Assembly: GCA_963575745.1 (NCBI GenBank)
Contig: CAUYUJ010000325.1
Coordinates: 434,001 to 498,000 of the forward strand
Direction of reading: 5' to 3'
From: Prorocentrum cordatum
Taxonomy: Eukaryota
Length of the DNA stretch: 64,000 bases
The stretch's first letter is position 1. Each line of letters opens with the position of its first letter. The position numbers were made by a program, and so were the translations under genes. A model generated the notes under the pieces. The model was not told where the DNA came from and did no database searches. It saw only the letters and a list, made by a program, of their open reading frames with translations. Below are positions 790 through 21,746 of this stretch, piece after piece.

Positions 790-965
790 CTGCAAATAAC
801 GCAGGGTGCCTCAGTTGCAGCACCTTTCATAGTTCCAGCCAACGATCCGTCCACATCAGCGCGTGCAGCTCGGCCCCAGCACTGCGCATGGAAAATGTGA
901 CCACACTGAAGCCTCCAGACCTTGTCGCGATGCATGAAGTGGTCCAGGCATACGGCACACTTGTT
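790..965 (-). pseudogene. RING-H2 zinc finger in the element A polyprotein
   Basis: Translates as CAVCLDHF...RLQCGHIFHAQCW...PCVICR, followed by AKELRDLREE (element B has ARELRDLRS). Confidence 0.8.
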
Positions 966-2279
966 AAAGCCACCGTCGCTGATGACTGGCGGTGTTGCCG
1001 ATGGCCTGATGCGCGTCTGGCGCTCCAGAGCAGATGCGCCAACCTCATACTGAATCGGAAGACCGACGGTTGCTGCATGGCTGCACGTGCTGCCGGTATG
1101 AATGCAGGTGCCCCTGCTGCGATTCGAATAGCAGGTTGCCCCGCGCGACCCAGCACCTTCTTTGCCTGACGCTCATGATTGCGACGCCGGCGGGCCACTT
1201 GCATTGAGAGATTGGCCTGCTGCGCGTCGTGAATGGCAAGAATCTCTGGGCGCAATTCCCCCATGGATGATTGCACTGCCAGGCCTGGGGCCTGTTGAGT
1301 CACATCTGAATCCATAGGGGTAGCCAAATATCCACGATGAGGAATCTGACCCGGCACACCTGACGCGCAACCAGAGCCGCGTGTCAACTGAGACTGATAG
1401 AAATCGTCGGCTGTCGCCCGTGCATACGGGTTCTCCGGCTGCGTTCCCACGAGGGATACCAGTCACCTAAGCAAAATAGCCAGGATACAATGGGAAGTCC
1501 ATCGGTGGTGCTGTAGGGCGCTCTGCAGCTGTCGGCCCGCATGTCGGATGATTGAAAGATGCTGGCACGTATTCGTACCTATTGGGGTTGTCCGGTGAAG
1601 GATTTGAGTCCGGGACATACTCCCAGGGAGGCGTCCGTCTAGCGCTAGGGATGTCGATGCCGCCCCTGCGCAAGCTCTGTCCGACTTAGCGAATTGGCCG
1701 GTACATCCACTCTTGCTGACCAACTGGACGCGGCGATGCGAACGGCGATGTCGCCTACAAAGCCTGGTAGAGCTCCGGGTCCATCCGAATGCTGTGGAGC
1801 CTCGCCTGTAGGCTATTGGTGCCCCCAGCACTCTGTGGAGCCCCAAATGGAGTTGTGGCCCTGCTCATGTGCAAACGACGCAGGTTTCCCTGCAGGACTG
1901 GCAGCTGCTGCGTCTGGACACGCCACGGATCGATGGCGCACAGCATATCGGTGGAAGTAATTCCACTCGATGTCATACCACTCACGTCCGCACTCTGGGC
2001 CTGCATCCATGATCCGTCAGATCCCCCTGCAGGTGCCCCCGCATGATGCACGTCTTGCAGCATAAATACTATAGAGAACTCGACCCCCTGGATGGGCGTC
2101 GGTTCGGGACACTTCAACTTGTAGGGGGAATAAACCAGTACTTCAACGATGATGCATCATGGAAAGATCATTTCTCGGATGCTTCTGACCGCTGTCCCAC
2201 AGGTACAAGGGATTGATTCATACATTCCCACGCGGTTATACCTGCACTTTTCGTTGGGCAGAATGCTTATAAGCTGGGC

Positions 2280-2945
2280 GATATGAGTCGGAGGAATTCT
2301 GCCGTTCCGGTCTGCCGACATTTAGATGTCATTTGCTGAGCACCACATAGCCATAGTAGCACGACGCAAATTCTTCAGACTAGCCATAATCAATACTTCG
2401 GAGTCGACGCGCAAGCCGGACTGGATTCTGCTGCCACCCTGTGAGTATGGGCAAGCATGAACAAACTGTCTGCCATGTCTCTCGACGGTGTCGTCGGCGC
2501 GGCATGACAGCCCTATGCGAAGTATATTCTGTATATTTTCCCACTAGGTACCGTGAGTGTAAAAAAGACAAAGTGCACCTGGAATAGTCAAGTCTGTTAT
2601 CCTCATATACAGTGATTCAGGGCACGTTATCCCAGGACTGATGCGTCCATTACTTGGACGTGTGAAATACGTCTCGTACATCTCAGTAGCGAACTTGCAC
2701 TTCTTGATATGGGGCCTGTTTACTTCATCCCAGCGCTGTCGACCATGCCGATCAAGTTCAGCACAGTTGGCATGCCCAATGGCGGCTGCTGAGATAACGC
2801 CGGACAGTCTCCAGGTGTTTGGGGCGGCAGCGATCGCATCCCTCAGGTGGCCATCGGTTGAGCAGCTCTGACAGCTCAGCTCCACCCATCCATCGAATTC
2901 GGCGAAAGACGGCACTGCTCGCAGAAACCTATGAGAGAAATGGCG
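2280..2945 (-). pseudogene. TPT1: Degenerate Tpt1/KptA RNA 2'-phosphotransferase domain in element A
   Basis: Manual translation through stops gives FSHRFLR...FDGWVEL...FTRPSNGR...SLY...THGT*WENIQNILRIGLSCR...GRQFVHAC...SGLRVDSEVLI...WCSANDI*MSADRNGRIPPTHI. This is colinear with the Tpt1 of element B. Confidence 0.75.
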
Positions 2946-5499: not shown

Positions 5500-6230
5500 C
5501 AAATATCTGGCAACCATGAGGTTAACAAGTGCACCTGAGCTACCGGCAGGGTCGGCCAGGAGCGACTCCCGGTCAACAACCTGTATATCCGAGTCAGTTT
5601 GAGCCAGATGTTTCGACGGACATCTCCCTCGTGACCGAAAATACTACTAATATTGCCGGGGGTTCTCTCAGCAGTGCGCGAAAATGACATCATTCGTTCA
5701 AGTAGAGAGTCAAACTGTTGCTGGCCCCTCGGCATGTTGCGGTTAAGTGGCTGCAGGAGTTGCCGTGCACGCGGCGCCCCCACCCCAAGGGCTCCGAATG
5801 AATAAACTGTTAGAATTTGGAAGTTGGGGATGTTAAAGCCTGCCGCTCTAGCATCTTAGCGGGTTATCTCGAAGCGCGCCAAAGCCTGGTCGATCCGTTC
5901 TCCCGCATGGACTCGGAAGTCAATGAGAGCTGTTCCAGGCAGGGTCGAGTTGGCGTTCCTCTTCCAGATTCTCGAACTCCGTGCTTGAGAGGAACATGAT
6001 GTAGGTGGCGCCGTCGGTATGGCGGCCACGTATGTTAACACCAAAACTGATAACTGCTGGGGGGCCTATCATGGCTATGGTCCACGAGAGGCCTCGTCAG
6101 CCTCGCTGCAAAGCTGCAGCTTGTTGGGAGGGCGTCATGTTGCCTGTGGCCACGTTGATCCAGGCATGTACATCGCGGACGAATTCGCGGAAAGGTACTT
6201 GACCAGACGAGTCCCCATAGGGGCCGGTCG
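5500..6230 (-). pseudogene. Gag-like N-terminal region of element A (frameshifted)
   Basis: Peptide similarity to element B Gag at 20442-21050, read from ORFs 6097-6426 and 5499-5783. Confidence 0.7.
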
Positions 6231-6680
6231 TTCTTGTGTCGTCTCCACCACGCATACGCATGTCCCACCGCACGCCCGATCGCGACCCATGTGAGCCCAA
6301 GGAGAGCAATACCAATCCAATGGCTTCGCAGGTCGTGGTCGGATGTAGTCGGTTGGGGTTTTCAATCTGTGGTCGCAAGTCTGCGTGGGGGCGGGGGCGG
6401 CGCAAAGTCGCATCGCATGCTTCCATGCATTATGTATTCGAAGAACTCCCTCATTGGAGCAGGTGGGTGGACTTCAGGAGTGTAGTAGCGCAGGGATGTA
6501 GGACGCAAGTAAGAGGCCTCCGCGTAGGCCGAGGTGTCACTGCAAGTGTCCTCGCTTTGCTGCGTAAATGTATTCATTCCTCTGCGCAAACCCACTGCAC
6601 CCTGATGTTCCACCACGTCAGTGGTCCACCAGGTAGTGCCGTGGATGGTGAGGAGTAAAGCTAGAACTGACTTCCATAGG

Positions 6681-6695
6681 CCAGCTCCGCTACCA
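6681..6695 (-). promoter_or_regulatory. Primer-binding site, probably tRNA-iMet (TGGTAGCGGAGCTGG)
   Basis: Identical to 21466-21480. It is complementary to a tRNA 3' end ...CUCCGCU-A-CCA, with the A1:U72 pair typical of initiator tRNA. Confidence 0.75.
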
Positions 6696-6923: not shown

Positions 6924-6969
6924 TGCATACCGCTGCCGCCAGATCCTCAGGTCCCCCATTGAACGGAGC

Positions 6970-7510: not shown

Positions 7511-7669
7511 CAGAGCCTACGATGACTCGCCATCTCAGAAGCCTCCAAGACGGCCCAAGACGGCCCAAGAGGCCCCCAAGAGGCCTCCCAGACGGCCCAA
7601 GTGGCCTCCAAGAGGTCCTGAAGGAAAGCCCGAAGGGGCCAAAATCATTGACTCTGCTGAGGCTGCTGA

Positions 7670-7935
7670 AGTCGAAAGTGAGCCTGGTAGGTCAAATCGC
7701 ATCCGATTCCGTAGACATCGGATGGCAAATAGCGTCCGGCATCGTACTGAGGCTGTTCAGTAAGAGGAATGGATGGATAAGATAAAATAAGATCGATGTA
7801 GTGATCTTTCCAGCATATAGCGAACACTCGCGGTGTCCGGGCAAATAGGGCGCGCGTGCCTTGAGCCAAAGGCAACGGCGCGCGAGCTATACTCCCGATT
7901 CTATACAACATCTCCCAAAGAGCTACCCTTAAAGT
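7670..7935 (-). repeat. 3' LTR of element B
   Basis: 266-bp copy of 21481-21746, with about 12 substitutions counted by eye. Confidence 0.92.
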
Positions 7936-8344
7936 CGGGAGGGGAGGAGACGGAGAGCATAGCCGCGCAGCCGTTAAGCTCTACAAAGGCCGCGCGCGCG
8001 ACTGTTTGCAAGAAAACAGTGTGTACACTCTGGCCTAACACCAGACTGTAAGGCGAGTTTCCTCGCAAAGCATTTCACGCAAATACGAGATAGCCCCTTC
8101 GGACGATGAAGGGCTATCGGCTCAGCTAGAGGTAAGCCAAGCGGGCCATGCCTCACCGAGCAAGCGGGTATTAAGGGAAAGAGCCTGAATCATATAAAGC
8201 CGGCTCGTTGCCAGGCGCGACATGTGAGGCTCGTTTCCGAGCAACTAGGAGGGCGCCTCTGTAGTAAGCGCCCATGCTGGCAAATTGGACCGCGGGGGGC
8301 AACAAGGACACACTAACATTGATTAGGCTTGGGTTTGTTTCTGT

Positions 8345-8444
8345 NNNNNNNNNNNNNNNNNNNNNNNNNNNNNNNNNNNNNNNNNNNNNNNNNNNNNNNN
8401 NNNNNNNNNNNNNNNNNNNNNNNNNNNNNNNNNNNNNNNNNNNN
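8345..8444. other. Assembly gap (100 N) at the position where RT/RNase H would be expected
   Basis: N run between the integrase C-terminal region and the 3' UTR/LTR. Confidence 0.95.
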
Positions 8445-8505
8445 CAGCATCATGGCTTCTATATCATGTTCCTCGTTTTCTTCGTAGATTGTAGACAGAC
8501 GGCCT

Positions 8506-9285
8506 TCACTTGGTGATGAAGCACCTGGGTGTCTGGTGGAGGCCTGTTTCCAGGCGGGTCGTGTTCTCCAGACGCGACGTGGTGCCCAAGTGCTGATACT
8601 TGGCCAGGTCGTCATGAAATCCTAAGGAAGGACCATTTGCGTCAAGCATTTGGAATGAGTCCCTGAGTGAGTGGCTACCAGTGACTTGAGAAATGTTCAG
8701 GCCAGTGCCCACACACTCATAGTAGTGGAAGGCTGGGCTGATATCGTTGTCGCAGTGGATCAGCGTAGACCCGGTGGCGTAATTTACTGCAGGTAGACTT
8801 GACACACTTTTGGCCCATCTAACTGCTACTACGTGTTCTACTCGGAAATAATTTCGCACGAGATACTGTAGTGCTAGATGCACGCGCGGGTGAAACTTGC
8901 TGTCGTCTGCAAGATTGAGGTTTCCCTTGTAGCCTGGGATGTAGCCGAAGACTTCGGCAGGTTTCCCTGCGCCGAGGTGTGCCACATACGTAAGGACGGT
9001 TTGCATGGCCACATTATCCATGCCAAGTTCCCGTGCGAGGAGACATTCAATGTATAGTGTGTGACGAGCATCAGGATACATCACAATTACCTCACGAGAT
9101 CCTGCCTTGACAACAATATGTCCTCTTTCAGGCACTTTACGGATCACAGGGAATGGGCCGTTCCAGCCTCCATGATCGTCCTTAGTGGCAGTGGGTCGAT
9201 GGTAGTCGACCAGATCCCCTGCCGAGTAAAGGCGAGCACCATCTGGGGCCGTTTTAGCCCTGAGAGCACGATTTGTCTTGGCCAC
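8506..9285 (-). CDS. Post-integrase segment of the element B polyprotein (frameshifted continuation)
   Basis: GDLVDYHRP...GGWNGPFPV resembles the GDxV...W.GP segment found after retroelement integrase cores. Confidence 0.6.
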   Translation of the reverse strand: MAKTNRALRAKTAPDGARLYSAGDLVDYHRPTATKDDHGGWNGPFPVIRKVPERGHIVVKAGSREVIVMYPDARHTLYIECLLARELGMDNVAMQTVLTYVAHLGAGKPAEVFGYIPGYKGNLNLADDSKFHPRVHLALQYLVRNYFRVEHVVAVRWAKSVSSLPAVNYATGSTLIHCDNDISPAFHYYECVGTGLNISQVTGSHSLRDSFQMLDANGPSLGFHDDLAKYQHLGTTSRLENTTRLETGLHQTPRCFITK

Positions 9286-12200
9286 AGCAGTGGCTTGAGT
9301 TATGGTTTCTAGGCTTAACTTCCCTCACACGACGTTCCCGTTCGTGTCCTGATGTCCCGGGTCCCTTGGGAAAGCCAAGGGTGTCGAGGCCAGGAAGAAA
9401 GGAGGGCTGACGTCCAGTGTGTGCTTGGTATGGCGATACTCCGTTGTAGAACGTGAAGGCGTTGGTAACGAAGATGCCTTCAGCCAATACTCTAGTGAAT
9501 ACAACAGGGATGTTGTGTCTATTCAGCTCTTCCTCAATCATGTGGAGGACGCCCCTGAGATTACCGTTCCGTGACTCAATTGAAGTCGCGTGTTGGCCAG
9601 GCGCTCGGATACGGAGTTCTGTACCCTTATTAGCCATCATGGCCTTAGCGGTATCATTGTTCAGGGCGCCTTCTCCGTCTGAGTATAAGACTTTGAGAGG
9701 TCCACGATAGGCAATCCAGCAGCAGTGGTAGGCGTCAAGTATAGCGTCACGTTCTCTGTCGGAGATTTCTTGGCCTGCTGCCAGGCGAATACAACGATCC
9801 ATAATGTGGAATATGGTTCGTTTCTTGTAAAACATGAGATCCATTTCGCCTTCATCGAGCCAATTACCAGGAAAGCTCACAGAAGGTAATGTTGAGTTTC
9901 CTGGACGTTCCCATGCTCTGCATTCCCGACAGGTATCGCAAACTTCTTTGATCATATTCAGTCGGGCATTGCCCAGTCCCACTTTGTCTAGGATTAGCCT
10001 CATCTTGGGTTCCTTCGCATGATGCCACCGTAGGTGCAATTTACGGAGTTCCTTTCTAACGACGCGAGGCTCATGACTACGGAGATTTTGCAGACTGCGT
10101 TGGATATCAAATCTCGTCCAGTCGGGTAGTCGTGCAGCCCCCGGGCCGGTGGAGGCAAGAGGGTTCCTTGTAGCTCTCCGCAGTCGGTCTCCTTCGTCAA
10201 CTGCATCTGGTGGTGGTGGTACGCCTTGTAGTCGGCCACGACGGGCCGCTACCTGTGGCGGTTCGCTAGAGGGCGCAGAAGGCGTGTTTCCACGCTCGGG
10301 GGCGTCTCCTAGCATGTCGTAACTGCTGGCACCAGATGTCGGATCAGCGTTCCCGAAGGATCGTGGTCGCGGTGGCCTGGCGCGTGCGCCTTGGCGGCCA
10401 CCTGGCGCTGAAGCTTGGCCCTCACCAGGTTTAGGTATGGGTTTCCACCAAGCTGGCACGGTTTTACCTTCGGGGTCGTGGTCATCTGGAAGTTTAAATG
10501 GTACAGCAAAACGACATTTACCAGGTTCGGTATCGAAGTGGTTATTAACACCTTTGCTCCTCGTAAGATCCCTCTGGCATGCGGGACATGGCCAATATAC
10601 AGAGATGGAGTCATGATACTTACACTGCGTAGGGTCTCTGTTATGGCTAGGACTGTCCTTTCGGACGTTGTCGATGCATGCCGGGCATGTAGCCACCTTT
10701 GGGATGATACGATCACCGATGCGTCTCATACCTTCGCCTAGTTCGGCTTGATCAGGAAGGTCTGCAGGGTAAGCATGTGCAGTACTTGTATGCGCGTTTC
10801 CGCGCGTAGTGTCAATGGCTTTCGCCGAATAGACGGCTTCCACAGAGGCAGACTGCAGTCGTCGAGTGTATGTTTGTGCCAGTGAAAGCTCTCTGTTGCA
10901 CGGTTGTGCGTGCACATGCTGACCGTTGCATTTGAGTCGCTCAAAGGGTTTAAGAGTCGTCTCGTCGTTGCTTGTGATACTACTCGTGTGTTTAATATAG
11001 TCACCAGCCGTACCTTTGAGTCCCGTCGCACACTGATCAATGCGTACGGTTGTAATGTGTGGTCGGTTGGCAAGTTTCTTCCATGGGGAAATATCATCCA
11101 CCCATGTTCCTGTAGGTTGTTCGCGCATAAACAACCTCCGTGCATCATCTTGAGCAACAGCAATTTTACCACAATAAGTAGTTTTGTGTGGAATATTTTC
11201 TTTGCGGTGCTGTTCCCAAGTGTTGTGAATGACTCTGTAGTTGTAGTAGGATGGTGGTCCTGTGGTGCGGCAACTGGGTTGTAGCATGGCAACTCGCACG
11301 TAGCAAATAGCGAAGTAGTGATCTACAACCCGCTGCACCGAGGGGTCTCCCAGGTCGACATATGTGGTTCTTTCTAGGTTGCCTCCTGAGGAGAGCCCCC
11401 TTGAGAAGGCAAGCTCTGAAATGCCACCCTCGCCGCCACAAAGATCCAACATATCCACGCAGTTGTCATGACCATAGCATAGTGTAGCAACTATGCTGTA
11501 TATGTCAGCGTGTGCGTCGGGCATAGATGTGGGGAGGGTAAGGAACAGGTCATCATCCTCATCGGAGCTTATCAGCTCAATAGGGACATCAGTACTCCAG
11601 GTCGCCATGAAATCCTGTCCGAGTCCTGACAAGTCGTCGCCGCAATCGTCGCTTCCGTCTTCAACGTGCTTTTTAATGCGACGAGGCTTGATGCCTGCTT
11701 CCTTTTCGGCTTTGAGCCTTTCCTTCTGCTTGATACGCGATTCTGTAGGTAAGACGTGCTCGTTTTGTTCGCCGGTCTGCGTGCCCATTGTCGCGGTTGA
11801 GTGGGTACATGCGTTAATCGCCAGAGTCGGGAGGGGGAGAGAACAGTCATCTATGATGACGCGTCTAGGTTTCTGTGGTGATTGAGTCGGCTCGTTTCCG
11901 AGCAAGACCGGTTCCTCGGGTTGCCAATACAACCGAGTGCTGATGTTGGCAACCCCTGCAGGTAGTGGCGCATGCCAATCATACCCTGTTGGTTGATCGG
12001 CTATTGCGATATCCTGGATGACCGCATTGGTATCCAGGTTAATTGTTACACGTCGGATAACATCAGACCACTTCGGTCCTCCCTTGTTGGTCGTCACGTA
12101 GTGATGGATGTTGTGGTCCTTGCGTGTGTAGGTGTTCATATATATAGGCACGTTTCCGTACGTGGTGGTGCTTCCCAGGATTTTGTCGTTCAGATGACGG

Positions 12201-12484
12201 ATGAGTGTAGTACGTGTCTGAGCTCGCCATTCAGCATGCCGTACTGCATGGCCATACCAATCCAACACATTCTGTGGCATCGCCTGTTTGCATGTACATG
12301 CCCACAGTTGCGAGCTAATCGGTATTGATGTCGCTACCTGCATATAAGTACCACTCGGTGTACTGTCTTGCATATTGAACCGAATACCAAAATGACACAA
12401 ACGCATCCGTATCACTGAACACTTAAGATCTTCCAGGGCATCACGTACTGGAGATAACTTCCAAACATATCCTGGGGGGACCAA
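9254..12484 (-). CDS. Element B Pol segment: C5-methyltransferase-like domain, tandem CxxC-H-C motifs, HHCC + DDE integrase
   Basis: Integrase zinc finger LHLRWHH...CDTCREC and core EMDLMF...LYSDGEGAL...IESRNGNLR (about 9410-10040). MTase-like motifs LDLCGGEGG, LQPSC, REQP, IDQCATG (about 10850-11460). Confidence 0.85.
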   Translation of the reverse strand: MVPPGYVWKLSPVRDALEDLKCSVIRMRLCHFGIRFNMQDSTPSGTYMQVATSIPISSQLWACTCKQAMPQNVLDWYGHAVRHAEWRAQTRTTLIRHLNDKILGSTTTYGNVPIYMNTYTRKDHNIHHYVTTNKGGPKWSDVIRRVTINLDTNAVIQDIAIADQPTGYDWHAPLPAGVANISTRLYWQPEEPVLLGNEPTQSPQKPRRVIIDDCSLPLPTLAINACTHSTATMGTQTGEQNEHVLPTESRIKQKERLKAEKEAGIKPRRIKKHVEDGSDDCGDDLSGLGQDFMATWSTDVPIELISSDEDDDLFLTLPTSMPDAHADIYSIVATLCYGHDNCVDMLDLCGGEGGISELAFSRGLSSGGNLERTTYVDLGDPSVQRVVDHYFAICYVRVAMLQPSCRTTGPPSYYNYRVIHNTWEQHRKENIPHKTTYCGKIAVAQDDARRLFMREQPTGTWVDDISPWKKLANRPHITTVRIDQCATGLKGTAGDYIKHTSSITSNDETTLKPFERLKCNGQHVHAQPCNRELSLAQTYTRRLQSASVEAVYSAKAIDTTRGNAHTSTAHAYPADLPDQAELGEGMRRIGDRIIPKVATCPACIDNVRKDSPSHNRDPTQCKYHDSISVYWPCPACQRDLTRSKGVNNHFDTEPGKCRFAVPFKLPDDHDPEGKTVPAWWKPIPKPGEGQASAPGGRQGARARPPRPRSFGNADPTSGASSYDMLGDAPERGNTPSAPSSEPPQVAARRGRLQGVPPPPDAVDEGDRLRRATRNPLASTGPGAARLPDWTRFDIQRSLQNLRSHEPRVVRKELRKLHLRWHHAKEPKMRLILDKVGLGNARLNMIKEVCDTCRECRAWERPGNSTLPSVSFPGNWLDEGEMDLMFYKKRTIFHIMDRCIRLAAGQEISDRERDAILDAYHCCWIAYRGPLKVLYSDGEGALNNDTAKAMMANKGTELRIRAPGQHATSIESRNGNLRGVLHMIEEELNRHNIPVVFTRVLAEGIFVTNAFTFYNGVSPYQAHTGRQPSFLPGLDTLGFPKGPGTSGHERERRVREVKPRNHNSSHCCGQDKSCSQG

Positions 12485-12809
12485 ATATTATGATTGTCAC
12501 ACGGAGTTTCCTGGCTTTTATCAAAAGGTTTTGGATACGTGACCAATGTGGGGCCACTCTCTTTCCTGGAGTTCGTACATGCCAGTCACCCGGGGTACTG
12601 ATCCATATGAGAGCGAAATCTCCACTGATCACCGCACCCAGGTAATCTGTGCCCACGCTCGTCATAAGCTCATTGTGGGAAATACGATCACAGATATAAC
12701 CACGGGCGCGGAGGTCGGCGCAAGCCTCTCTCGCATCTTCAATGACAAAAGCCCTTTTACTAAGGCAGGTTACCCCGCTGTCCTCGTTACCCCCCGGCTT
12801 TTCGGCCAA
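12441..12809 (-). CDS. Element B polyprotein fragment: first, more degenerate methyltransferase-like module
   Basis: DFALIWISTP...IIIFGPP continues after a frameshift into PPGYVW...RMRLCHFG, paralleling the motif spacing of the second module. Confidence 0.4.
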   Translation of the reverse strand: MAEKPGGNEDSGVTCLSKRAFVIEDAREACADLRARGYICDRISHNELMTSVGTDYLGAVISGDFALIWISTPGDWHVRTPGKRVAPHWSRIQNLLIKARKLRVTIIIFGPPRICLEVISST

Positions 12810-12848
12810 CAGGCAAGACGACGAGGGGGCGACGTCGCCCTGCCATCT

Positions 12849-15800
12849 TCAAGATAAAGAAGATGTGCCTGCAATGTCTGCCAGCATCTGGGCTTCCTTC
12901 AGATGCTGGAGCTCAGCACTGCAGCGCGCCGTGGCCTCAGAGGCGGATTGCTCCGCAAATGCTGTCAGCATGGATAGATTATCCATCAGCTGTTTCAGCA
13001 CGCCTTTGGACCTCGCGTCGCTGACTGTCTGCAGCTCACGGTTCGTGTACCCCATCACTATCTTCCGGCGGGACCGTGCAGAGTCCATGGGTACACTTCC
13101 ACCATGCTGGGCCAGTGTCCTGGCTACGAAGCAATCGAACGTCTCAAGATCGTCGATGCTGTCGCCTCTCATCGTAGCCTTGGCGAGCGTCTCCATCAAC
13201 CCCTGAGGCAGGTTTCCCTGCAATTGCTCGCGCTCCTGCGCCGGGGTCGGTTCGCCCGTCAGCACCGTCTGGAATGACGTGCTGCTTGAGCTCGAGGCGG
13301 GTTGCCCCGCAGCTCCAAATCGATCACACCTGATCGACAGATGCCCTGACGGCAACTTCGTCGTCGGCATGATCTTGGAGCCCTCGGGGAGCTCCATCTT
13401 GACCTGCCCCTTCCCAGGGAATATCAGCTTCTCCTGGCCTCGTTCAAGCACAATGATCGTGCGTTTGTCCTGCGTACTATCGAGGCCTAGGATGGCTGGC
13501 AGGTCTTTGCCACAGCCTGACACAATGTTCGTCTTGTACGAATCGAGCTGGGTCGACCCCTGGTACTCGCAGGCAATGCTGAATGTGCCTACGGTATCCG
13601 CTGGGGCCGACCCTTCGCCCACCCCGTTGATGTTCAAACGGGAACGGGGCTCGAACGTACAAGTACGGCCGTGCGCCTCAGCAGCCTGGACGAACTTGCG
13701 GCTCGTGTTCTCGCCCATGATGTTGATCTCCGAGCCTACATCGATGAGGATAGAGTTCCCACCATCGTCCAAGAACGTCTTACTCGGCTGCTTGACGCGC
13801 ACCGTTTCTGAAGTTTCGGCTATGCTGTTTGGCGGGTTTCCCCGCAGGTCATTTGTACTCCCTGGCGGGTTACCCCGCATGACGCTGGCATACGGCCTGC
13901 CTTCGGCCATACGTACCAGGTCGATGTACTGGAAATACGACACGTGCTGGACATGATCGCCACGCTCCTCCCGCCAGTTGGCATACTCATCACGTATGCT
14001 CTTATACTGCTCGCGGGTCGTGCGTCTCGTCAGCGTCAGATACGAGTGAAGGGCAATGTCCTGCAACCCCTCATTCGTGAGGTGATCCCTGTACTGCAGC
14101 CACTCCTCGAACTCCTCGTTCGTCGCTGTGATGTCGACGGCCCTGGCTGCTGTTGCTGCTGTTGCAACTGAGGAGTCTGAGAGGTCAAACGACGCACCAT
14201 CAGTCTCGGGATTGTCGGCATCCAGCATAAAGGTTGTGTGCGCATTTTCCATTTGATTCTGGAAATGCCGAACACGCAACTCACGCAGATGATCAGGGTC
14301 CAGTGCCAGCTCTGCCCCGCCCCCACTCTGGGGAGACATCTGAGGAGTGTTAGGCAGGTTTCCCTGCTGAGGCACCGTCATCGGGATAAGCTGATCGAAG
14401 TATCCCGTCTCCATTGGCGGCCTCACCTCCTCTGGCAGGTTTCCCTGCTGTTGGGGCTGAGCTGTCTGCCTGTCTAGCATCCTGGCCGTCATCTCCTCCA
14501 CCATGCTCCTCAAATCCCGCAGCTCCCTCGCTGCTTGCTCAGGAGTCTGAGTGAAAGAGCTGGTCCATGGGAATGATGACGCTATGATGCCAGGTGCTCG
14601 GCAGATAGCACATGGTGGCTGCTGAGGATCTCCCTCGCGCTGGTTTGCGACATGGCCCACCACGTTTGAATTCCAGCACCCCTCATGGAATAAGTGATTA
14701 CACCTCAAACGGTAAACGCTCTCCCTGGGCTGAAATTCTCCGAGGCATACCGCGCAGGTATCTTCCATCCCAGCGAACACTTCCACATCTGCTGCTCTGG
14801 GATATACCCGCCGCTGTCTCTCCAAGACCGTCCCGGAGGGCATGAAGGCTGCTGGGGGATCCCCTGATGGATCCAGCACCTCCGGCACTCCGGCAGCTGC
14901 AGCTGGAGGAGCTGCTGGCACGGAAGCTGTAGGCGCCACAGCGGGCGAGTTCCCTCGCATGGGTGAGCCTCTGTTCCTCACGACCTCAAGCGCGGCTGCA
15001 CGCGAATGATCACGCACGTTCTGCACGGTCTGTCTGCGCCTAAAGCATGCCTGTTGGGTGTGGCATGTCTGCCCGATATAATCAGGCACACCTCTACTGC
15101 CAGACGATATCGAATGGGCAGTGGGCTGGACAGCCACATCTGGCGTCGTCGGCGCAGGCATAAAGGCCATGTGCGGATACATGGACTGATCACTACAGCG
15201 CACGTGAGTGAGGCTGTGGAACTGATCCACCATTTCACGAACAAACTTGTTCGGGACTCTAGACCCATCAGGGTACAGTGGCGGATTCATGCGTGCTGGC
15301 GGTGGCCTCTGGCCCTGGGCCATGCTCGGGTGAGCATTGAAGGCTGGGATGAAGGCTCGTTGCCGAGCAGGATCCCTTGGATTGGGACCCTCTGGCTCCC
15401 AGGACCAGGCCGGCCTCCACCTCTGGCCACTCGGGTGAGGCAGGTTATGGCTCTGCACCTGTTGCACAGCAGCCGCCACTCTTGCACGGAAGTCATCAGG
15501 CACACCAGCGACTGTGGTTTGTTCAGCAAACGGTCGATGATGGCTTGGGGTGCCGGGCAGGTTTCCCTGCTGACTCGTTGGAGTGCCTGGCGGCATCATG
15601 TTCAGGAGAGCCGTGCCATGCTCGGCCCCGGCCGCTGCGATCCTCTCCATGAGGGTGCCGTTCGTGACAGGGCGGCCAGGAGTCCCGAACGGAGACTGTG
15701 CAGGTGGCGTAGCCATTAGGGTCACGACCCTCGGCGTGTGCATACTCTGCGAGGGGCTACCATGCATCTGCTCAAATCGAGCAGGCTCTCCAAAGATGCG

Positions 15801-15908
15801 GCCGAACGTCTGCGGGTCTCCCTGCGGCTCAGACATCTCAGCTCTGAGTCCATTTATAGGCAGGTTTCCCTGCATGGCCTGACGATTTCGCGTCGCAATG
15901 GCGGACAT
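12849..15908 (-). CDS. Element B polyprotein segment with RING-H2 finger (14599-14757) and retropepsin-like aspartic protease (about 13330-13760)
   Basis: RING: CAVCLGEF...LRCNHLFHEGCW...CAICR. Protease: ILIDVGSEINIMG...INGVG...LPAILGLD. Confidence 0.85.
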   Translation of the reverse strand: MSAIATRNRQAMQGNLPINGLRAEMSEPQGDPQTFGRIFGEPARFEQMHGSPSQSMHTPRVVTLMATPPAQSPFGTPGRPVTNGTLMERIAAAGAEHGTALLNMMPPGTPTSQQGNLPGTPSHHRPFAEQTTVAGVPDDFRARVAAAVQQVQSHNLPHPSGQRWRPAWSWEPEGPNPRDPARQRAFIPAFNAHPSMAQGQRPPPARMNPPLYPDGSRVPNKFVREMVDQFHSLTHVRCSDQSMYPHMAFMPAPTTPDVAVQPTAHSISSGSRGVPDYIGQTCHTQQACFRRRQTVQNVRDHSRAAALEVVRNRGSPMRGNSPAVAPTASVPAAPPAAAAGVPEVLDPSGDPPAAFMPSGTVLERQRRVYPRAADVEVFAGMEDTCAVCLGEFQPRESVYRLRCNHLFHEGCWNSNVVGHVANQREGDPQQPPCAICRAPGIIASSFPWTSSFTQTPEQAARELRDLRSMVEEMTARMLDRQTAQPQQQGNLPEEVRPPMETGYFDQLIPMTVPQQGNLPNTPQMSPQSGGGAELALDPDHLRELRVRHFQNQMENAHTTFMLDADNPETDGASFDLSDSSVATAATAARAVDITATNEEFEEWLQYRDHLTNEGLQDIALHSYLTLTRRTTREQYKSIRDEYANWREERGDHVQHVSYFQYIDLVRMAEGRPYASVMRGNPPGSTNDLRGNPPNSIAETSETVRVKQPSKTFLDDGGNSILIDVGSEINIMGENTSRKFVQAAEAHGRTCTFEPRSRLNINGVGEGSAPADTVGTFSIACEYQGSTQLDSYKTNIVSGCGKDLPAILGLDSTQDKRTIIVLERGQEKLIFPGKGQVKMELPEGSKIMPTTKLPSGHLSIRCDRFGAAGQPASSSSSTSFQTVLTGEPTPAQEREQLQGNLPQGLMETLAKATMRGDSIDDLETFDCFVARTLAQHGGSVPMDSARSRRKIVMGYTNRELQTVSDARSKGVLKQLMDNLSMLTAFAEQSASEATARCSAELQHLKEAQMLADIAGTSSLS

Positions 15909-16324
15909 TGCTCCCTGGCCAGCGGCCCAGGGGTCTTGTTGATATAGTTAACCTGTCCGCCAATTGCTCCACCTGTTCAGGGTTCAGAGCGGCCGCTATT
16001 TGGCCCAGGTCCGAGGTGCTGATGGCCTGCCAAGCTACGGCTTGGAGCCGCGCTTCCGGCCTCGCTCTCGGTGATCATGAAGATCTGGTGGACCTCAGGC
16101 TGGTTTCCCAGCGTGGCGGGACTGTAGTGGTCCCCAACCTCCCTGTGGAGGTAGACCATGGGAGGGTCGACGCCCTCTTGGTCGCGGGACCACTGGTATT
16201 TGACGCTGGCACTGCCAGCGTCAGCCCACCTGCCAGGGGCCGACGGCGCGGCGGGGGGGACACGCGCCCGGCGATCCCCCAGGTACTCTGGATTGCGCCA
16301 GTGCTTCCCCGTGGCAAGGTCCTC

Positions 16325-17075
16325 TACATGGTAAATGTAGTACGGTTCGATGATACCGTTATTTCCCTCGGGCAAAAGGACTCCGTTATCATACCAACAG
16401 AACTTCATACCATCTTGCATGGCCTTGTGCCAATCTACGAAGATGATGATGTCGGAGTCTGGGTCCCACCCGCTGTTCACGGCACGACGGCGGACCGTCG
16501 GCGCGAAGTGGATGCGCGACCGGCCTGTCCCTCGTTTCTTCGTGTTGTGTTCGGGTCTACAAGACAGGCCGTGCCACATAATGCCTTCGAAGGCATTCCA
16601 CCGAGTGCCATGCATGGCGACCTCGGGGCACGGGGCCGGTATCCCGGCAGGTTGGTCGCACAGTACAATATAATTGTACAGCGACCATGGAGCTTTCAAT
16701 GTCCACGAATGCCCCTGAGAGGCGCGGATGAAGATCTCGGGCTCGCCGGAGTCCCGCGCTAACACCTTGAACTGAAGGCGTTGTTTTTCTTCTCCGTTTG
16801 GTTCGCGGACATGAACCACTTCCATCATGATGGCCGCCAACTGGTCCACCGATCGACCATATAGGTTCGCGGTGATGACTTTGGCCTCATCATGTCTGGG
16901 ATTGTACCCATCATGCCTCGATCGCCCGGTTTTCCACGGATACTCATTTATGAGCTCTACGAGGTTAATCCAGCCATCATGATCATCGAATGTAGCCAGA
17001 CCCCACACAGGATTGTGTGCTTTGTCCGGCGCATGTCAGCATATCCTACTGAGAGCTTTGCTCAGTTGCTTGAGG
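16325..17075 (-). pseudogene. TPT1: Tpt1/KptA RNA 2'-phosphotransferase domain within the element B polyprotein (one in-frame stop)
   Basis: LSKALSRIC*H...DHDGWINL...KQRLQF...IRASQGHS...MHGT...GLS...RSRIHFA...IFVDWHKAMQDGMKF...NGVLLPEGNNGIIEP contains the Tpt1 hallmark motifs in order. ORFs 17036-18067 and 15977-17008 are in the same frame. Confidence 0.9.
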
Positions 17076-19109
17076 GTGTGGTTGGATCTCGGGATAATGT
17101 TTTCTTGCCTGCACTTTCTCACGAATTCCTCATCCACCGAGCGTATCGGCGGGGGCTTCCGCAGAGCAAGTCTATCCCTGATCACATTCGGAGTCCCACT
17201 GGTGAAGGACGCGTCTCCTGGGCGGCGCAGCTGATCCACGGGCGGGTTTCCCCGCGCAGGAGCCTCTGTCGCTGAAGAGGCTGCGGCTCCTGGAGAGGAG
17301 GAAGCTGCAGCAGCAGCGCCTGGCGGGTTTCCCCGCGGTGATCCGCGACTGGCGCTACCCCTAATCGTCGGCACCCAGGTGCCCCTAGACAGAGCACCTT
17401 CGTCGGACCTTTTGGAACGGGCCGCCACAGGCGAAGCTGGCGCAGGGGCGTACCCTGTGCGCTCGAAAGCCATCGCCTTCTGAGCAATGGAACTGCTGCG
17501 ACTAGGCGGGCGTCTCCGTTCCTCCACAGAGTCCTGAGGTTGCTGCTTGGGCTCAGATCCTTGTGCTGGAGTTGCGCCAATCGGTGATCTCGGCGTTACA
17601 GAGCGAGGCGCCTCCATCTGCACATCTGGCCCAGGATCCTCAGAGCGTGCCTTCGGCCTCATTTCCGAAGACGACTTCGGTGCTGGAGTTTCACTCTTAG
17701 CCTTCGATTGTAGTGGGAGCGGGGGCTTCTTAGCCCCCTTCATGTAAATCCTTTGGGAGTCCATCAGCATTTGGCGAGTTGCCTCGCGTGTGCGTTCTTC
17801 TGCTATTCGCATACGTTCCTCATCCGCCGCAACTCGCCGGGCCTTCTGTTCATCCTTGTTCGCTGGTTCTGGCTGTTGGGACTGGCTGGAAAAGCCGGGC
17901 GAGTTTCCTCGCATTCCAGGAAGACTAAAGAGCGCGTCTTTTTCTTCCTGGGTCATGGGCACCAGTCCCCTTGGAGCCGGAGGAGGCTGATCCTTTTTGT
18001 CTTTCGGCTCCATGTGACCCATGATCCCGAGACGACGATTGATCTCTGCGATCTTGTCCTGTGTCATCGGGATCAGTGGCGGATGGGCGCCTTCCTTATG
18101 AAGGGGTTTTGCCCCTGTTTGGGCTCAGACCTCCATTATTTCCTACGGGGCATCCCGGCCTGTGGTTCTGGAACGGCTCGGAACATGGTCCGCAAGCTGC
18201 TGGAGGCCTATGCAACTTGCGAGCCGCGATAACGTTTCGCAGCTGTGTCCGCACTTCTTCAATTTCAGGGCGGCGGATGTTTGTTGCGAGATGATAGCCT
18301 CCGCGGATGGCCTCACCCTGAGCGCCCCTATAGGCAGGGTTGCCCTTGCCGAAGGCCGAGTGTTCCCCTTTACGGCGTCTTGGGTCATTGTAAGGAAGTA
18401 GTTCACCTCCTCGCCAGAGAGCGTGTTCCTTTGGGCCAGCCTGCCTATACTCACGAGGAAGCCGGGCCTGTGGATGTGGCTCTCCTCTGACGCGCGGATG
18501 GGAACGAGACCTTCCTGCATTCTCATCAGAAGAGGCTGCCGACGCAGCCTGAGTGGAAGCTGGCGGAGGCGCCGGCGGAGGCCCCTGTGCGATCCCAGGT
18601 GGATCGGCTAGTAGAGGCGGGTTGCCCTGCTGACTGGAGCCTGGCGCACATGGCGCTTGTGCCGATGGTGATGGTGCATCAGGCTCGTCAGGATCAAAGT
18701 CCACCTCTTCCTCACCGGTGACCTCCATCATGAGGACTGTGGCTTCATCCTCGCATAGCCCGCAACCATCGCCCTCTTCTTCTTCTGATGTAGAACTGCC
18801 AATGATGATGGCCATTGGCGCAGCCGGGACAGGCAGGTCCCCCTGCATAACCGGCGTCTGTGCGTCGCTCGGCTGTCCCGGAGTAGGCGGCGCGGTTGTC
18901 GGCTCAGGCTCGTTGCCGAGCACAGGCTGCCCAGCAACGTTGCGCATGGCGGTGTGATTTGGCCATCGCCCCGCCGCCTGGAGACCCCATCCTGGCGGCG
19001 GAAGAGCCTGGCCGCGCATGGCGATGGCCCTTTCAAGGGCATCGCGCCATCTCCCTCGGGAGTACCACACATGTCTCTGCACGCCCTCAGGATGCACACT
19101 GTCAGTCAA
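17076..19109 (-). CDS. Pro/Ala/Ser-rich, probably disordered linker segments of the element B polyprotein
   Basis: Consecutive minus-strand ORFs 18096-19109 and 17036-18067 lie between Gag and Tpt1. No recognisable domain. Confidence 0.55.
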
Positions 19110-20253
19110 TAAGGGTCAAGGCTGCCAACACTAACTCCGAGTCGTCGCAGGCGTCAGTGTCCTGCAGCATCACGATGCCAGCTTCGATGCTTTCTTGACT
19201 CTCGGGATATGCGATGGTCAATACCTCGTGCATCCTCATGAGGGTTTGCAGTAGTGTGCGTGGTCCGCACTCGCCTGGAGCAAGCGAACCAGGGGGTACA
19301 AATGGGACCTCTGGTGCGCCTGCAACGAAAGCTTGAACGAACGCTTGAGACCCCATTTCTACAAGTTCATCATGATTTCGGGGATAGATAGGCCTGTTTC
19401 CAGGCGGGAGTTCGGGTGGAGGTTGGAGGTTGCGGCCAACCTCTGAAAGCGAGGCCTCTACAGTGACGTCCTCGTCACTGCTCTCGTAGGCCATGATGTT
19501 GCCTGGGTCCCCGAACATCCAGTCGAAGAAAGATAAAGGCTGGTTTCCCAGCGTTCCGTGTTCCACGGGAGTGAGCTCGTTGTCGCCAACAACGAACCTG
19601 CGGACGTACTCGAGATAGTACGCGTACAAGCCATGACCATACGCCTCGAGCTCGTCGACGTTGTCCATGCAACTGACCCAAGTGTAAAATATCTGTTCCA
19701 TGGCCTCAAAATCCTGGAGGCTCAGATATTCGATGAATGGTTCACTTGAGCCAAAATGGACTTCGGTCGATCTGCCCTTCCCGTTTCCCTTCGCTGGACG
19801 ATCTCTCACAAGATGGTCGGCACTGTCACACTCATGGCACTTTAGAACCTGGCCGTCTCTACCCCGCGGGTTTCCCCGCCTACCTTTGCCTTTTCCTGAG
19901 GTCTCTCTACGGCCTTTGCCGCGGCCCTTTCCCCCGAAGAATATCCCATCATACTGTTCATCTGAGAGCCTCTGGAGGAATGCCGTGACGCCTCGTCCAT
20001 TCAACCTCCGACGACCTCGTTTGCCTTTACCTTTTCCTTTGAAGCTCCTCCGTATCCTCCTCCTAACACGACGCGCTGGTTTTCGTGTGAATCTCCTCCA
20101 CCTCCGTTTAGCCTGTTGTAATAACCAAAACAAATGTTCAGTACGCTGATTGTCATTTTCCATATTCATGATATCTGACCAATCTAAGGCTTCAGCACCG
20201 TCTGATGATGTAGTATCTGTGTCGGTGCCGGAGTCGAAATCATCGTCTCCCAA
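19102..20253 (-). CDS. Gag C-terminus/nucleocapsid: basic KGKG repeats and degenerate CCHC knuckle
   Basis: AKRRWRRF...KGKGKG...NPRGRDGQVLKCHECDSADHLVRDRP; the last Cys has become Arg. Confidence 0.8.
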   Translation of the reverse strand: MGDDDFDSGTDTDTTSSDGAEALDWSDIMNMENDNQRTEHLFWLLQQAKRRWRRFTRKPARRVRRRIRRSFKGKGKGKRGRRRLNGRGVTAFLQRLSDEQYDGIFFGGKGRGKGRRETSGKGKGRRGNPRGRDGQVLKCHECDSADHLVRDRPAKGNGKGRSTEVHFGSSEPFIEYLSLQDFEAMEQIFYTWVSCMDNVDELEAYGHGLYAYYLEYVRRFVVGDNELTPVEHGTLGNQPLSFFDWMFGDPGNIMAYESSDEDVTVEASLSEVGRNLQPPPELPPGNRPIYPRNHDELVEMGSQAFVQAFVAGAPEVPFVPPGSLAPGECGPRTLLQTLMRMHEVLTIAYPESQESIEAGIVMLQDTDACDDSELVLAALTLID

Positions 20254-20441
20254 GTAGGTGGATACACCGTCGGTTAGGGGGTTTGATCCACCCCATAGAG
20301 AACGGTGTGGTTGAGGCTCTCTAGAAGGAGGGCTGGTTGCCCAGCTCGGTTGTGGTCGATCCCCTGCTAATAGAGCAGTGTATTCTCCAGGATCGTCGGC
20401 CCATATGCTTGAGGGCCCGTTTCCAGGCTGGGCTTCAGTGG

Positions 20442-21281
20442 TTAAGGTAGTGTAGAAATTCCCACAGCTGATCCCCTTCCCCTTCCAAACACAGATCCTA
20501 TGTTACCAGGAGACCGTTCTGATAGGTGACCTATCGAACGCACCCTCTCCAGCAACTCATCATATTGTTTCTGTGTTCGGGGCGTTTGGTGGTTGAGTGG
20601 CTGTAAGAGTTGCATAGTTCGCTGGTTGCCAACGCCCAAGGCGCGGAACAGGATCGTGGTTAGTAGTTGGAAGTTGGGAAGGTCAAATCCCACCGACTGT
20701 GCCTCAAGTCGGGCTTCGACTCGGGTAAGGGTGACATCAATTCGTTCTCCGTGAGGCACATGAAAATCGATGAGCTGCGTGCCGGAAGTGAGCTGGCGCT
20801 CATCTTCCAGGCGCTCGAACTTCATGCTTTGGAGGAACATGATGTAGGTCACTGGGTCGGTGTGGACCCCATCGATGTCAGCACCATAGTTTATAATGTC
20901 AGGCGGTACCCTCATGGCGTGTGTCCTCGCTAGGCCACCCAGGCCGCGTTGTCCGCTTGTGACGTTGAGCCACGCGTTGACCTCATAAACGTACTCGCGG
21001 AAAGGTACGTTGCCTTGAAGGTCCCAGTCTGGGCCATGTGTTTGCCCATCGGTGCTGTTGTCTCCACGACGCATGTGTCCGATTGCTGCCCCCAGCGCGA
21101 ACCATGTGATAGCGAAGATAACCAGCCCAAGGCTGTGTAGATAGGGGTGGTTATTAGGCGCGTTGCCGCGCTGGGGTAGCGCCTTGTCGAGTCTTCGAGG
21201 CGCTCTATCTGGCGGATCTCTCCACCCATGCTTCAAGTGCTGCGCTTTTGACTCGTTGCCGAGCGGTTGGTAGTAGCGCAA
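20442..21281 (-). CDS. Gag N-terminal region of element B
   Basis: GPDWDL...PFREYVYEVNAW at the first ORF after the PBS; homologous to element A. Confidence 0.7.
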   Translation of the reverse strand: MRYYQPLGNESKAQHLKHGWRDPPDRAPRRLDKALPQRGNAPNNHPYLHSLGLVIFAITWFALGAAIGHMRRGDNSTDGQTHGPDWDLQGNVPFREYVYEVNAWLNVTSGQRGLGGLARTHAMRVPPDIINYGADIDGVHTDPVTYIMFLQSMKFERLEDERQLTSGTQLIDFHVPHGERIDVTLTRVEARLEAQSVGFDLPNFQLLTTILFRALGVGNQRTMQLLQPLNHQTPRTQKQYDELLERVRSIGHLSERSPGNIGSVFGRGRGSAVGISTLP

Positions 21282-21465
21282 TGGTGAAACATATATGGTA
21301 CCAATGTTGCTGTCTAGACGTCGTACCTCTCGTGTTGCTTCTTGCTCTTGGATATATCCTCGTCAACGTACTGGGAGTGGTAGCGCAGGGTGGTAGGTGG
21401 TCACGAGGATCGTGCCGAAGAGTATGAGGATGAGAAGAGCAAGAGCTGACCACACGAGAGTGCGG

Positions 21466-21480
21466 CCAGCTCCGCTACCA
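21466..21480 (-). promoter_or_regulatory. Primer-binding site, probably tRNA-iMet
   Basis: TGGTAGCGGAGCTGG immediately 3' of the 5' LTR on the sense strand. Confidence 0.8.
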
Positions 21481-21746
21481 AGTCGAAAGTGAGCCTGGTA
21501 GGTCAAATCGCATCCGATTCCGTAGACATCGGATGGCAAATAGCGCCCGGTATCGTACTGAGGCTGTTCAGTAAGAGGAATGGACGGATAAGATAGGATA
21601 AGATCGATGTAGTGATCTTTCCAGCACATAGCGAACACTCGCGGTGTCCGGGCAAATAGGGCGCGCGTGCCTTGAGCCAAAGGCAACGGCGCGCGAACTG
21701 TACTCCCGATTCTATATAATATCTCCCAAGAAGCTACCCTTAAAGT
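21481..21746 (-). repeat. 5' LTR of element B
   Basis: Direct repeat of 7670-7935. Contains a TATA-like TATTATATAGA about 21 nt upstream of an SL-like motif. Confidence 0.92.

Follow-up and report, generated by a model that had tools for sequence, protein, structure and literature searches.

A Tpt1/KptA domain within a minus-strand element

We analyzed a 64,000-nucleotide (nt) stretch of the Prorocentrum cordatum assembly GCA_963575745.1 (contig CAUYUJ010000325.1, positions 434,001 to 498,000), referred to below as the window. An element of 14 kb lies on its minus strand between two 267-nt direct repeats, and it carries a Gag-like region, a Tpt1/KptA RNA 2'-phosphotransferase domain, a RING-H2 zinc finger, a protease-like motif, a cryptic methyltransferase-like domain, and an integrase, in this order (Table 1). 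An initial annotation, made from the letters of the DNA, had placed Tpt1 in a retrotransposon between Gag and protease, and the succession of Gag knuckle, Tpt1, RING finger, and protease-like motif found here agrees with that placement. A second element, which belongs to another subfamily and is more decayed, is cut by the window start.

The minus-strand translation of positions 17200 to 15977 contains seven Tpt1 motifs, from LSKALSRIC-TGA-H to NGVLL, all of them in the order given by the initial annotation, the coordinates of which (16325 to 17075) accord with the bounds of 17092 to 16295 obtained with a hidden Markov model (HMM) of the element-type domain. The first motif had been read as LSKALSRIC[R]H; the motif itself stands, and the bracketed arginine does not, as its codon is a TGA stop (17038 to 17036). 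The profile PF01885, with a curated cut-off of 26 bits, matched the stop-to-stop open reading frame (ORF) 15977 to 17035 with an E value of 3.8e-19 (69.9 bits, profile positions 59 to 177 of 177). With the TGA read as X, the full profile (positions 4 to 177 of 177) was matched at an E value of 1.2e-22 (81.2 bits), so that the profile check proposed in the initial annotation gave a result well above the cut-off. The nearest solved proteins by sequence were human and mouse TRPT1 (E values, 2e-10 and 3.4e-09, respectively). An AlphaFold2 model of the domain, built from an input alignment of 67 rows, had a predicted local distance difference test score (pLDDT) of 86.2 and a predicted template modeling (TM) score of 0.83. 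When this model was compared with the PDB by Foldseek, all ranks down to 22 (E ≤ 0.001) among the matches listed were Tpt1/KptA structures, headed by human TRPT1 (7yw3; E value, 2.9e-13; TM score on the target, 0.72; 262 alignment columns), and PARP and toxin folds appeared only at E values near 0.01 and above. The stretch is confirmed, far beyond chance, as a genuine Tpt1/KptA domain with the two-lobe fold, consisting of an RNA lobe and an NAD+/ADP-ribosyltransferase lobe.

The direct repeats are identical at 255 of 267 positions, with all 12 differences being transitions, and CAGC stands on both outer flanks as a 4-bp target duplication. Directly after the 5' long terminal repeat (LTR) comes TGGTAGCGGAGCTG, which starts with TGG and presumably resembles the initiator-tRNA sites of other copia elements. 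The 11-mer TGGTAGCGGAG is present in both window elements; of 28 related metagenome loci, 14 carry a single coding-strand copy of it, lying between the pol end and the gag start. A conserved LTR end (..CTTTCGACT) stands before this word and unrelated sequence after it, and this conservation beside the LTR end with diverging flanks is the signature of a putative tRNA primer-binding site (PBS). No tRNA genes were found in the window by ARAGORN. The H-H...C-x2-C residues of the integrase and its DD35E triad (D883, D937, and E971) were nearly invariant across the 20 sequences of an alignment (A6). Taken together, the LTRs, the target duplication, the PBS word, the HHCC/DD35E integrase, and the copia-type reverse transcriptase (RT) domain RVT_2 in relatives of the integrase identify the element as an LTR retrotransposon. 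A DNA transposon or a Polinton-like element was ruled out by the LTRs, the PBS word, and the RT of the relatives. The tract 5' of the 3' LTR (7936 to 8000, minus strand) is pyrimidine-rich on the coding strand (CTCTCCGTCTCCTCCCCTCCC), which differs from the expected polypurine tract.

Tpt1 in the Gag-Pol frame of intact relatives

An HMMER scan of 1.84 billion representative proteins with the Tpt1 domain yielded 507 proteins at E ≤ 0.001, the best of which were short fragments with 51 to 82% identity, together with a 239-amino-acid protein with 44% identity. The 90% cluster of the latter contained P0173, a single protein of 1,379 amino acids from an independent assembly that comprises a basic linker, Tpt1 (PF01885; E value, 1.7e-13; 51.4 bits), a RING finger, and the protease motif. 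P0173 is colinear with window positions 17488 to 16280 and 15947 to 13722 at 33 to 34% identity, and the end of the window linker is colinear with its residues 49 to 227. Furthermore, a metagenome scan with an integrase-RT relative gave 28 loci. In one of them (L024), a pol frame ends, the PBS word comes next, and an uninterrupted frame of 2,653 codons follows that runs off the contig. This frame encodes Gag with an intact CX2CX4HX4C knuckle, Tpt1 (PF01885; E value, 1.1e-16; 61.8 bits; full profile), RING, and the protease motif, and its Tpt1 is 27% identical to that of the window (E value, 6e-22). The second window element has the same Gag-Tpt1-RING order as the main element and belongs to the L024 subfamily; in the trees described below, its Tpt1 groups with P0017, P0064, and L024. 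A word-indexed protein search with the Tpt1 part gave one protein at near lengths and none longer, and a scan of metagenome contigs with a single protein gave nine pattern matches, none of which was a relative. Since intact natural copies exist, the repaired consensus that the initial annotation had suggested for functional assays is unneeded.

The RING-H2 finger was found between Tpt1 and protease in all relatives seen (residues 990 to 1044 of P0173 and 2130 to 2184 of the L024 frame), and locus L018, which is without Tpt1, still has RING-H2 (ORF 1670 to 3592) before the protease. The finger is a second unusual accessory domain of the lineage. The protease-like motif reads D-V-G-S or D-I-G-S in every copy seen (the window, P0173, L024, and L018).

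Residues of the catalytic Arg-His-Arg-Arg tetrad, which is essential in Tpt1 and contacts the 2'- and 3'-phosphates (PMC10622864), were counted in the element-type sequences covering each position, including L024; P0006 was omitted for motif 1, as its N-terminus comes from another part of the element. The first Arg was present in 9 of 10 sequences, the sole miss being the TGA of the window, and the His also in 9 of 10, with Tyr in P0008. The second and third Arg were invariant (13/13 and 14/14, respectively), and the tetrad is complete in the intact relatives L024, P0173, P0064, and P0080. Neutral evolution of the element-borne copies had been considered in the initial annotation; we found the catalytic residues to be kept across subfamilies that are 27 to 44% identical.

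In a maximum-likelihood (ML) tree of 78 rows, the element-type sequences, including P0080, P0012, and P0015, lay on one side of a branch with a Shimodaira-Hasegawa-like approximate likelihood ratio test (SH-aLRT) value of 98. A second ML tree of 78 rows, from which the fragmentary long rows P0012 and P0015 were dropped and to which L024 and P0064 were added, separated seven element-type rows from 71 others (SH-aLRT, 97). Two canonical Tpt1 gene models of Symbiodinium (P0026, named Trpt1, and P0109) were among these 71 ordinary rows. The element Tpt1s stood beside the Symbiodinium Trpt1 models in neither tree, which speaks against the nesting as recent single captures of the host gene that the initial annotation had named as a refutation. 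Thus, on these free trees, the element Tpt1 appears to be set apart from the host gene. Besides, element-type Tpt1s score 52 to 81 bits with PF01885, whereas ordinary Tpt1s score 150 to 195 bits, and they share a clade-specific insert, GLSC(R/L)xEHN, after the HGT helix. P0109 (2,131 amino acids) combines Tpt1 with an endonuclease and RVT_1 of the long interspersed nuclear element (LINE) type and was a candidate for a second retroelement with Tpt1. The identity between its Tpt1 and that of P0026 is 81%, and its parts are more than 800 residues apart; a merged gene model is therefore as likely as a fusion.

Based on P0173, L024, the order in the second element, the kept tetrad, and the tree branch, we consider it quite probable that Tpt1 is built into Gag-Pol, and passed on vertically, in a divergent lineage of Ty1/copia-like LTR retrotransposons. 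The layout of this lineage would be LTR, PBS, Gag (CCHC), linker, Tpt1, RING, protease, methyltransferase-like domain, integrase, RT, ribonuclease H (RNase H), and LTR. Contigs with at least 85% identity (85 to 99%) over the whole element, including Tpt1, numbered 8,200, 15,554, and 2,447 in three runs (X1, X2, and X3, respectively); at least two organisms and a marine metagenome thus harbor the family in high copy number. Among the sequencing runs listed as containing the element there was no RNA run, a blank that says nothing about expression.

It is very improbable that Tpt1 is instead a neutral passenger, either a fragment captured once by a single copy or young subfamily or a host gene interrupted by insertions. 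Such an origin would fit the stop at a catalytic residue and the broken frames of the window copy, the existence of deletion variants without the module, and the capture of host mRNA pieces by retroelements, a kind of recombination that spliced-leader relics in the element itself display. It does not fit the Gag-Tpt1-RING-protease order in three subfamilies with 27 to 44% identity, the two long uninterrupted frames from independent assemblies (P0173 and L024), the retention of catalytic residues, the single branch away from the Symbiodinium Trpt1 models, or the thousands of contigs in the three runs that cover the Tpt1 region.

Several observations weigh against Tpt1 being integral to a dinoflagellate lineage. 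Locus L018 extends from the Gag knuckle through RING, protease, and integrase to RT, and no Tpt1 was found in it with either Pfam or the element-type HMM. In rare contigs, moreover, 15572 or 15879 is connected to about 18853, with a loss of about 3 kb including Tpt1; these variants indicate that Tpt1 is not indispensable to every relative. In X1, the summed contig depth of the Tpt1 part was about half that of the integrase part, contig depth being a poor measure of copy number. Synonymous divergence (dS) was saturated and the ratio of nonsynonymous to synonymous divergence (dN/dS) undefined both for the second copy versus L024 and for the main copy versus L024, and the trees are quick ML searches with long branches and no root. 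Finally, the assignment to dinoflagellates rests only on spliced-leader-like words and one named relative with 38% identity.

Two further Tpt1-related records are worth mentioning. The first is P0005/P0174: P0005, a fragment of the N-lobe that shares 62% identity with the window, stems from a EukProt entry under the name of the green alga Pyramimonas sp. CCMP1952, which reflects either contamination or a wider host range. In P0006, a post-integrase peptide (window positions about 9000 to 8940) is joined directly to the Tpt1 N-lobe, as in a rearranged copy.

Table 1. Features of the two retrotransposons in the window
Feature	Position (nt)	Strand	Basis or remark
Main element
5' LTR, 267 nt	21480..21746	Minus	Direct repeat of 7669-7935; CAGC just upstream
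PBS word TGGTAGCGGAG	21470..21480	Minus	Abuts 5' LTR end
Gag-like region, two frames (20442-21362 and 19102-20502)	19102..21362	Minus	ORFs; homology to Gag part of L024
Degenerate CCHC knuckle in Gag-like region	19839-19801	Minus	Last Cys missing
Low-complexity linker rich in basic residues, Pro, and Ser, ~2 kb, frames 18096-19115 and 17036-18124	17093..19115	Minus	Between Gag and Tpt1
Tpt1/KptA RNA 2'-phosphotransferase domain, both lobes	16295..17092	Minus	PF01885, motifs, AlphaFold2 model and Foldseek
Motif LSKALSRIC-TGA-H	17065-17033	Minus	
Motif DGW	Between LSKALSRIC-TGA-H and KQR	Minus	
Motif KQR	16792-16766	Minus	
Motif IRASQGHS	16732-16706	Minus	
Motif HGT	16618-16598	Minus	
Motif RSRIHFAP	16522-16499	Minus	
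Motif NGVLL	16390-16364	Minus	
Private 4-nt insertion	15945..15948	Minus	Breaks frame between Tpt1 and RING-protease parts
RING-H2 zinc finger	14589..14756	Minus	PF17123, E 2.8e-08; PF13639, E 1e-05
Protease-like motif ILIDVGSEINIMG	13713..13751	Minus	Read directly; D-V-G-S replaces D-T/S-G
C5-DNA-methyltransferase-like domain, cryptic (DLCGGEGG, P-x-C, EQP)	10592..11599	Minus	Conserved in integrase relatives
Integrase	9061..10033	Minus	HHCC 10033-9911; D 9841, D 9679, E 9577; SH3-like end 9231-9061
Short 3' region	7936..8590	Minus	RT-RNase H of relatives would follow here; missing
3' LTR	7669..7935	Minus	Followed by CAGC (4-bp target-site duplication)
30 perfect hairpins GCNN(G/A)-GNRA-(C/T)NNGC	8053..21171	Minus (coding strand)	Pattern count and shuffles
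Second element
Whole, to window start	644..6695	Minus	PBS word, Gag-like, Tpt1-like, RING
PBS word	~6695-6685	Minus	
Gag-like region	6372-5634	Minus	
Tpt1-like region	3008-2250	Minus	Stops after HGT and in NDI motif
RING	1058-644	Minus	

Decay of the window copy

The structure proposed by the initial annotation, Tpt1 within a retrotransposon, was borne out, and the copy at hand proved to be dead. The first catalytic Arg codon of its Tpt1 is the TGA noted above, with His and the second and third Arg present; intact relatives have Arg at this position, and the stop reads as a CGA-to-TGA type change. Programmed read-through or selenocysteine was rejected as an explanation, given the Arg of the relatives, the CpG-transition type of the change, and the further defects of the copy. 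Contigs that lack the private 4-nt insertion account for 686.5 of 714.1 depth units in X1, 62.4 of 135.1 in X2, and 63.9 of 73.9 in X3. Besides, no Pfam match to RT or RNase H was found in the window copy, and the RT parts of relatives match nothing in the window. With the TGA at the catalytic Arg, several frameshifts, and the loss of RT-RNase H, the copy is to be read as a non-autonomous member of its family.

Two single-base frame shifts, at 12474 (between the protease part and pol) and at 9317 (after which the SH3-like end of the integrase continues in another frame), are common to many other copies. Base 12474 is absent from contigs of about 39 to 43% of the depth in X1 and X2, base 9317 is absent from contigs of about 18% of the depth in X1, and the relatives P0153 and P0156 are read straight through. 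The shifts may be either inherited defects of a successful non-autonomous subfamily or programmed shifts.

Affinity to Ty1/copia elements and host range

The integrase part has 20 relatives with 35 to 63% identity, one of them from Symbiodinium sp. CCMP2592. RVT_2 follows the integrase in 7 of the 20 (E values, 1.7e-07 to 6e-04), with scores at or below the curated cut-off, and is also found in L018. Matches to the integrase model rve fell below the Pfam cut-off (2 of 20 relatives at E ≤ 0.001 and 4 of 20 at E ≤ 1). This order, with the integrase before RT, marks the family as Ty1/copia-like. When the 20 relatives were compared with the window by tblastn, matches extended only from about 12758 down to about 8590, and residues 1067 to 1812 of P0156 (RVT_2 at 1278 to 1495) had nothing corresponding in the window.

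Pfam searches with the Gag, linker, protease, and pol segments of the window gave no match even at E ≤ 5, and PF01885 and the RING models were the only Pfam models to reach significance on ORFs of the window. Searches of the PDB by sequence and by profile, with the pol ORF and alignment A6, gave 0 matches. The element family is very divergent in sequence. Judging from the spliced-leader-like words and the named relative, it is probably a family of dinoflagellate elements.

Hairpins, spliced-leader-like words, and a cryptic methyltransferase-like domain

Perfect hairpins with GNRA loops recur throughout the main element, with 30 on the coding strand versus 1 on the opposite strand and a mean of 0.42 (maximum, 3) in 200 shuffles. 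Their 5-bp stems lie in several reading frames, and nine stem variants pair through compensatory changes. Those flanking Tpt1 most closely are at 17255 to 17242 and 16112 to 16099; further examples are at 15873 to 15860, 17336 to 17323, and 18846 to 18833, as well as at 1893 and 610. Relatives show the same strand bias (coding versus other strand, 10 versus 1 in L004, 7 versus 1 in L021, and 8 versus 1 in L024), and no hairpins were found in loci L002 and L006. Lineage-specific stems (TCACG, GCACG, and GCGCG) were noted in L004, L021, L024, and L003. The 5-bp hairpin was part of the minimum-energy fold in five of six 45-nt windows, with unexceptional z-scores of -1.7 to 0.04, and the case for the hairpins is built on recurrence, strand bias, and covariation. 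No Rfam family corresponded to them, and a literature search found no paper.

In other copies, the breakpoints of deletions and duplications are no more than a few bases away from the hairpins, which indicates that the hairpins behave as recombination joints between modules. Back-joints in contigs of other copies include 17337>13829, 18606>14352, and 18820>15858. The hairpins could possibly be packaging signals, sites of RT pausing or template switching, or processing sites.

Words closely matching the 22-nt dinoflagellate spliced leader given in PMC5029490 were found in gag as a nearly complete 23-mer (19767 to 19745), in frame after the Gag knuckle and at the same place in L024 (about 2787 to 2812), and in both LTRs (21671 to 21685 and 7860 to 7874). 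Their presence in gag and the LTRs suggests that trans-spliced element mRNAs may have recombined back into the element. A similar word occurs in L019 at about 391 to 414.

The region 10592 to 11599 may fold like a C5-cytosine methyltransferase, for which the indications from the model are weak to middling. All 10 of the best named hits in the Atlas were PF00145, at scores of only 0.75 to 0.78, and the top 14 rows of VIA-align were all C5-cytosine methyltransferases, with middling Z values of 7.5 to 5.8. The model had a pLDDT of 76, Foldseek matches had E values of 0.011 or above, and PF00145 matched none of 20 integrase-family members at E ≤ 1.

Possible roles of the element-borne Tpt1

In intact copies, the Gag frame includes, upstream of the protease, a two-lobe Tpt1 that is complete and has every catalytic residue. 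Because of this frame and position, Tpt1 would be expected in the virus-like particle, where it would be made together with the particle proteins and freed by the protease. The nucleic acids available to it there would be primer tRNA, genomic RNA, and cDNA, and a 2'-phosphate on a terminal or internal nucleotide of the primer, or on the template, would hinder priming or copying. Tpt1 is known to remove terminal 2'-phosphates as well (PMC10622864). We tentatively favor, as the most likely role, that the enzyme uses NAD+ to clear internal or terminal 2'-phosphates from primer tRNA or element RNA. Two points count against this role: we know of no source of RNA 2'-phosphates in the host, and a search of positions 6500 to 23000 against Rfam at E ≤ 1 gave neither a ribozyme nor any other family.

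Sharing the same domain and element, the selected activity might instead be ADP-ribose capping of 5'-phosphate ends of cDNA or RNA, which would protect them from exonucleases or from being end-joined into dead-end circles; we regard this as rather unlikely. Capping of DNA and RNA with 5'-phospho-ADP-ribose is an in vitro activity of Tpt1 enzymes (PMC10622864), and KptA complexes with 5'-phospho-ADP-ribosylated DNA (9lda and others) were among our fold matches. Linear cDNA has 5'-phosphate ends after primer removal, as is established for retroelements, and capping needs no unexplained source of 2'-phosphate. On the other hand, both reactions take place at one active site, so that sequence cannot separate capping from 2'-phosphate removal; an in vivo role of such caps is, according to the discussion in PMC10622864, established for no Tpt1; and the RNA lobe and the full tetrad, tuned to the pair of 2'- and 3'-phosphates, are fully kept.

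It also seems unlikely that Tpt1 acts elsewhere, on host RNA, on the 2'-phosphate of NADP(H), in counter-defense, by consuming NAD+, or mainly by binding RNA. Archaeal Tpt1s move the 2'-phosphate of NADP(H) to NAD+ (PMC10622864), and the strong divergence of the element-type clade from canonical Tpt1 in PF01885 score, its specific insert, and the resemblance of the RING finger and the methyltransferase-like domain in the polyprotein to host-interaction modules would suit such a role. Nothing specific favors a host-directed role or another substrate, however, and pure binding would not require the tetrad, HGT, and R-x-x-I-H to be kept at 27% identity.

Returning to the clearing of 2'-phosphates, a more specific version is that primer tRNA or element RNA in these hosts bears marks, of 2'-phosphate or a related phospho-ribosyl kind, at which reverse transcription is blocked, and that Tpt1 is a replication enzyme which the element takes along in its particle to erase them. 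We consider this version speculative and improbable as it stands. The marks could stem from cutting and joining of the tRNA-ligase type at the GNRA hairpins or could represent a host barrier.

Relation to known systems and implications

Cellular Tpt1/TRPT1 proteins (human 7yw3 and mouse 7yw2; bacterial and archaeal KptA/Tpt1 6e3a, 8tg3, and 9ld6) share the Pfam family and the two-lobe fold with the window domain, and they share the tetrad Arg-His-Arg-Arg, HGT, and R-x-x-I-H with the intact element copies. Mammalian TRPT1 is the best match in both sequence and fold. The identity between human TRPT1 (7yw3) and the window Tpt1 is about 24% in the fold alignment, and the element Tpt1 has in addition its insert and its own branch. 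Whereas cellular Tpt1 is a free protein of about 180 to 250 residues, the element Tpt1 lies inside a polyprotein of more than 2,600 residues.

Accessory enzymes known from retrotransposons include dUTPase, chromodomains, and DNA methyltransferases. To these, the copia-like LTR retrotransposons described here add an accessory enzyme not reported before. Full-text literature searches, with supplements and repeat libraries such as Repbase outside their scope, found no report of an RNA 2'-phosphotransferase in Gag-Pol; the initial annotation had been aware of no characterization of Tpt1 as a retrotransposon domain, and our searches likewise gave only unrelated papers. Tpt1 is not mentioned in the accessible parts of a review of retrotransposon accessory domains and of a preprint on methyltransferase-bearing retrotransposons (10.64898/2026.05.21.726589), nor is a retrotransposon-borne RNA 2'-phosphotransferase reported in the accessible text of PMC6338049.

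The Symbiodinium elements SmTCL1 to SmTCL4 are dinoflagellate Ty1-copia-like LTR elements of about 10 kb with the integrase upstream of RT, as here. Their published description is limited to LTR, integrase, RT, and RNase H, and the main text mentions no Tpt1, RING, or methyltransferase (PMC5776459). The same study reports that dinoflagellate genomes contain copia-like elements in great abundance and that heat activates them in a coral symbiont. According to PMC5890265, SymbioLINE-DNMT and SymbioDIRS-DNMT3 keep a nucleic-acid-modifying enzyme of host type, a DNA methyltransferase (DNMT), in a retrotransposon coding region in the same host group, and these DNMT-bearing Symbiodinium LINE and DIRS elements are the nearest precedent for enzyme capture. 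The enzyme is DNMT in those elements, whereas here it is Tpt1, in the LTR/copia class. Symbiodinium Copia elements are said in that paper to be without any DNMT domain, whereas the elements here may have a cryptic C5-methyltransferase-like fold, for which the model gives weak evidence.

The physiological substrate of Tpt1 beyond fungal and plant tRNA splicing is a long-standing question (PMC10622864). An enzyme kept through deep divergence amid a tRNA primer, genomic RNA, and cDNA would provide a narrow context for this question, and it may be a hint that 2' modifications of RNA are of consequence in reverse transcription. Yeast Ty1, which depends on the debranching enzyme Dbr1, offers a loose parallel. 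If Tpt1 does erase marks that block reverse transcription, this would reveal a step or a restriction, new to the biology of retroelements, that depends on RNA 2'-phosphate. Furthermore, the Tpt1, RING, and methyltransferase-like domains of these elements may bear on the genome biology of dinoflagellates.

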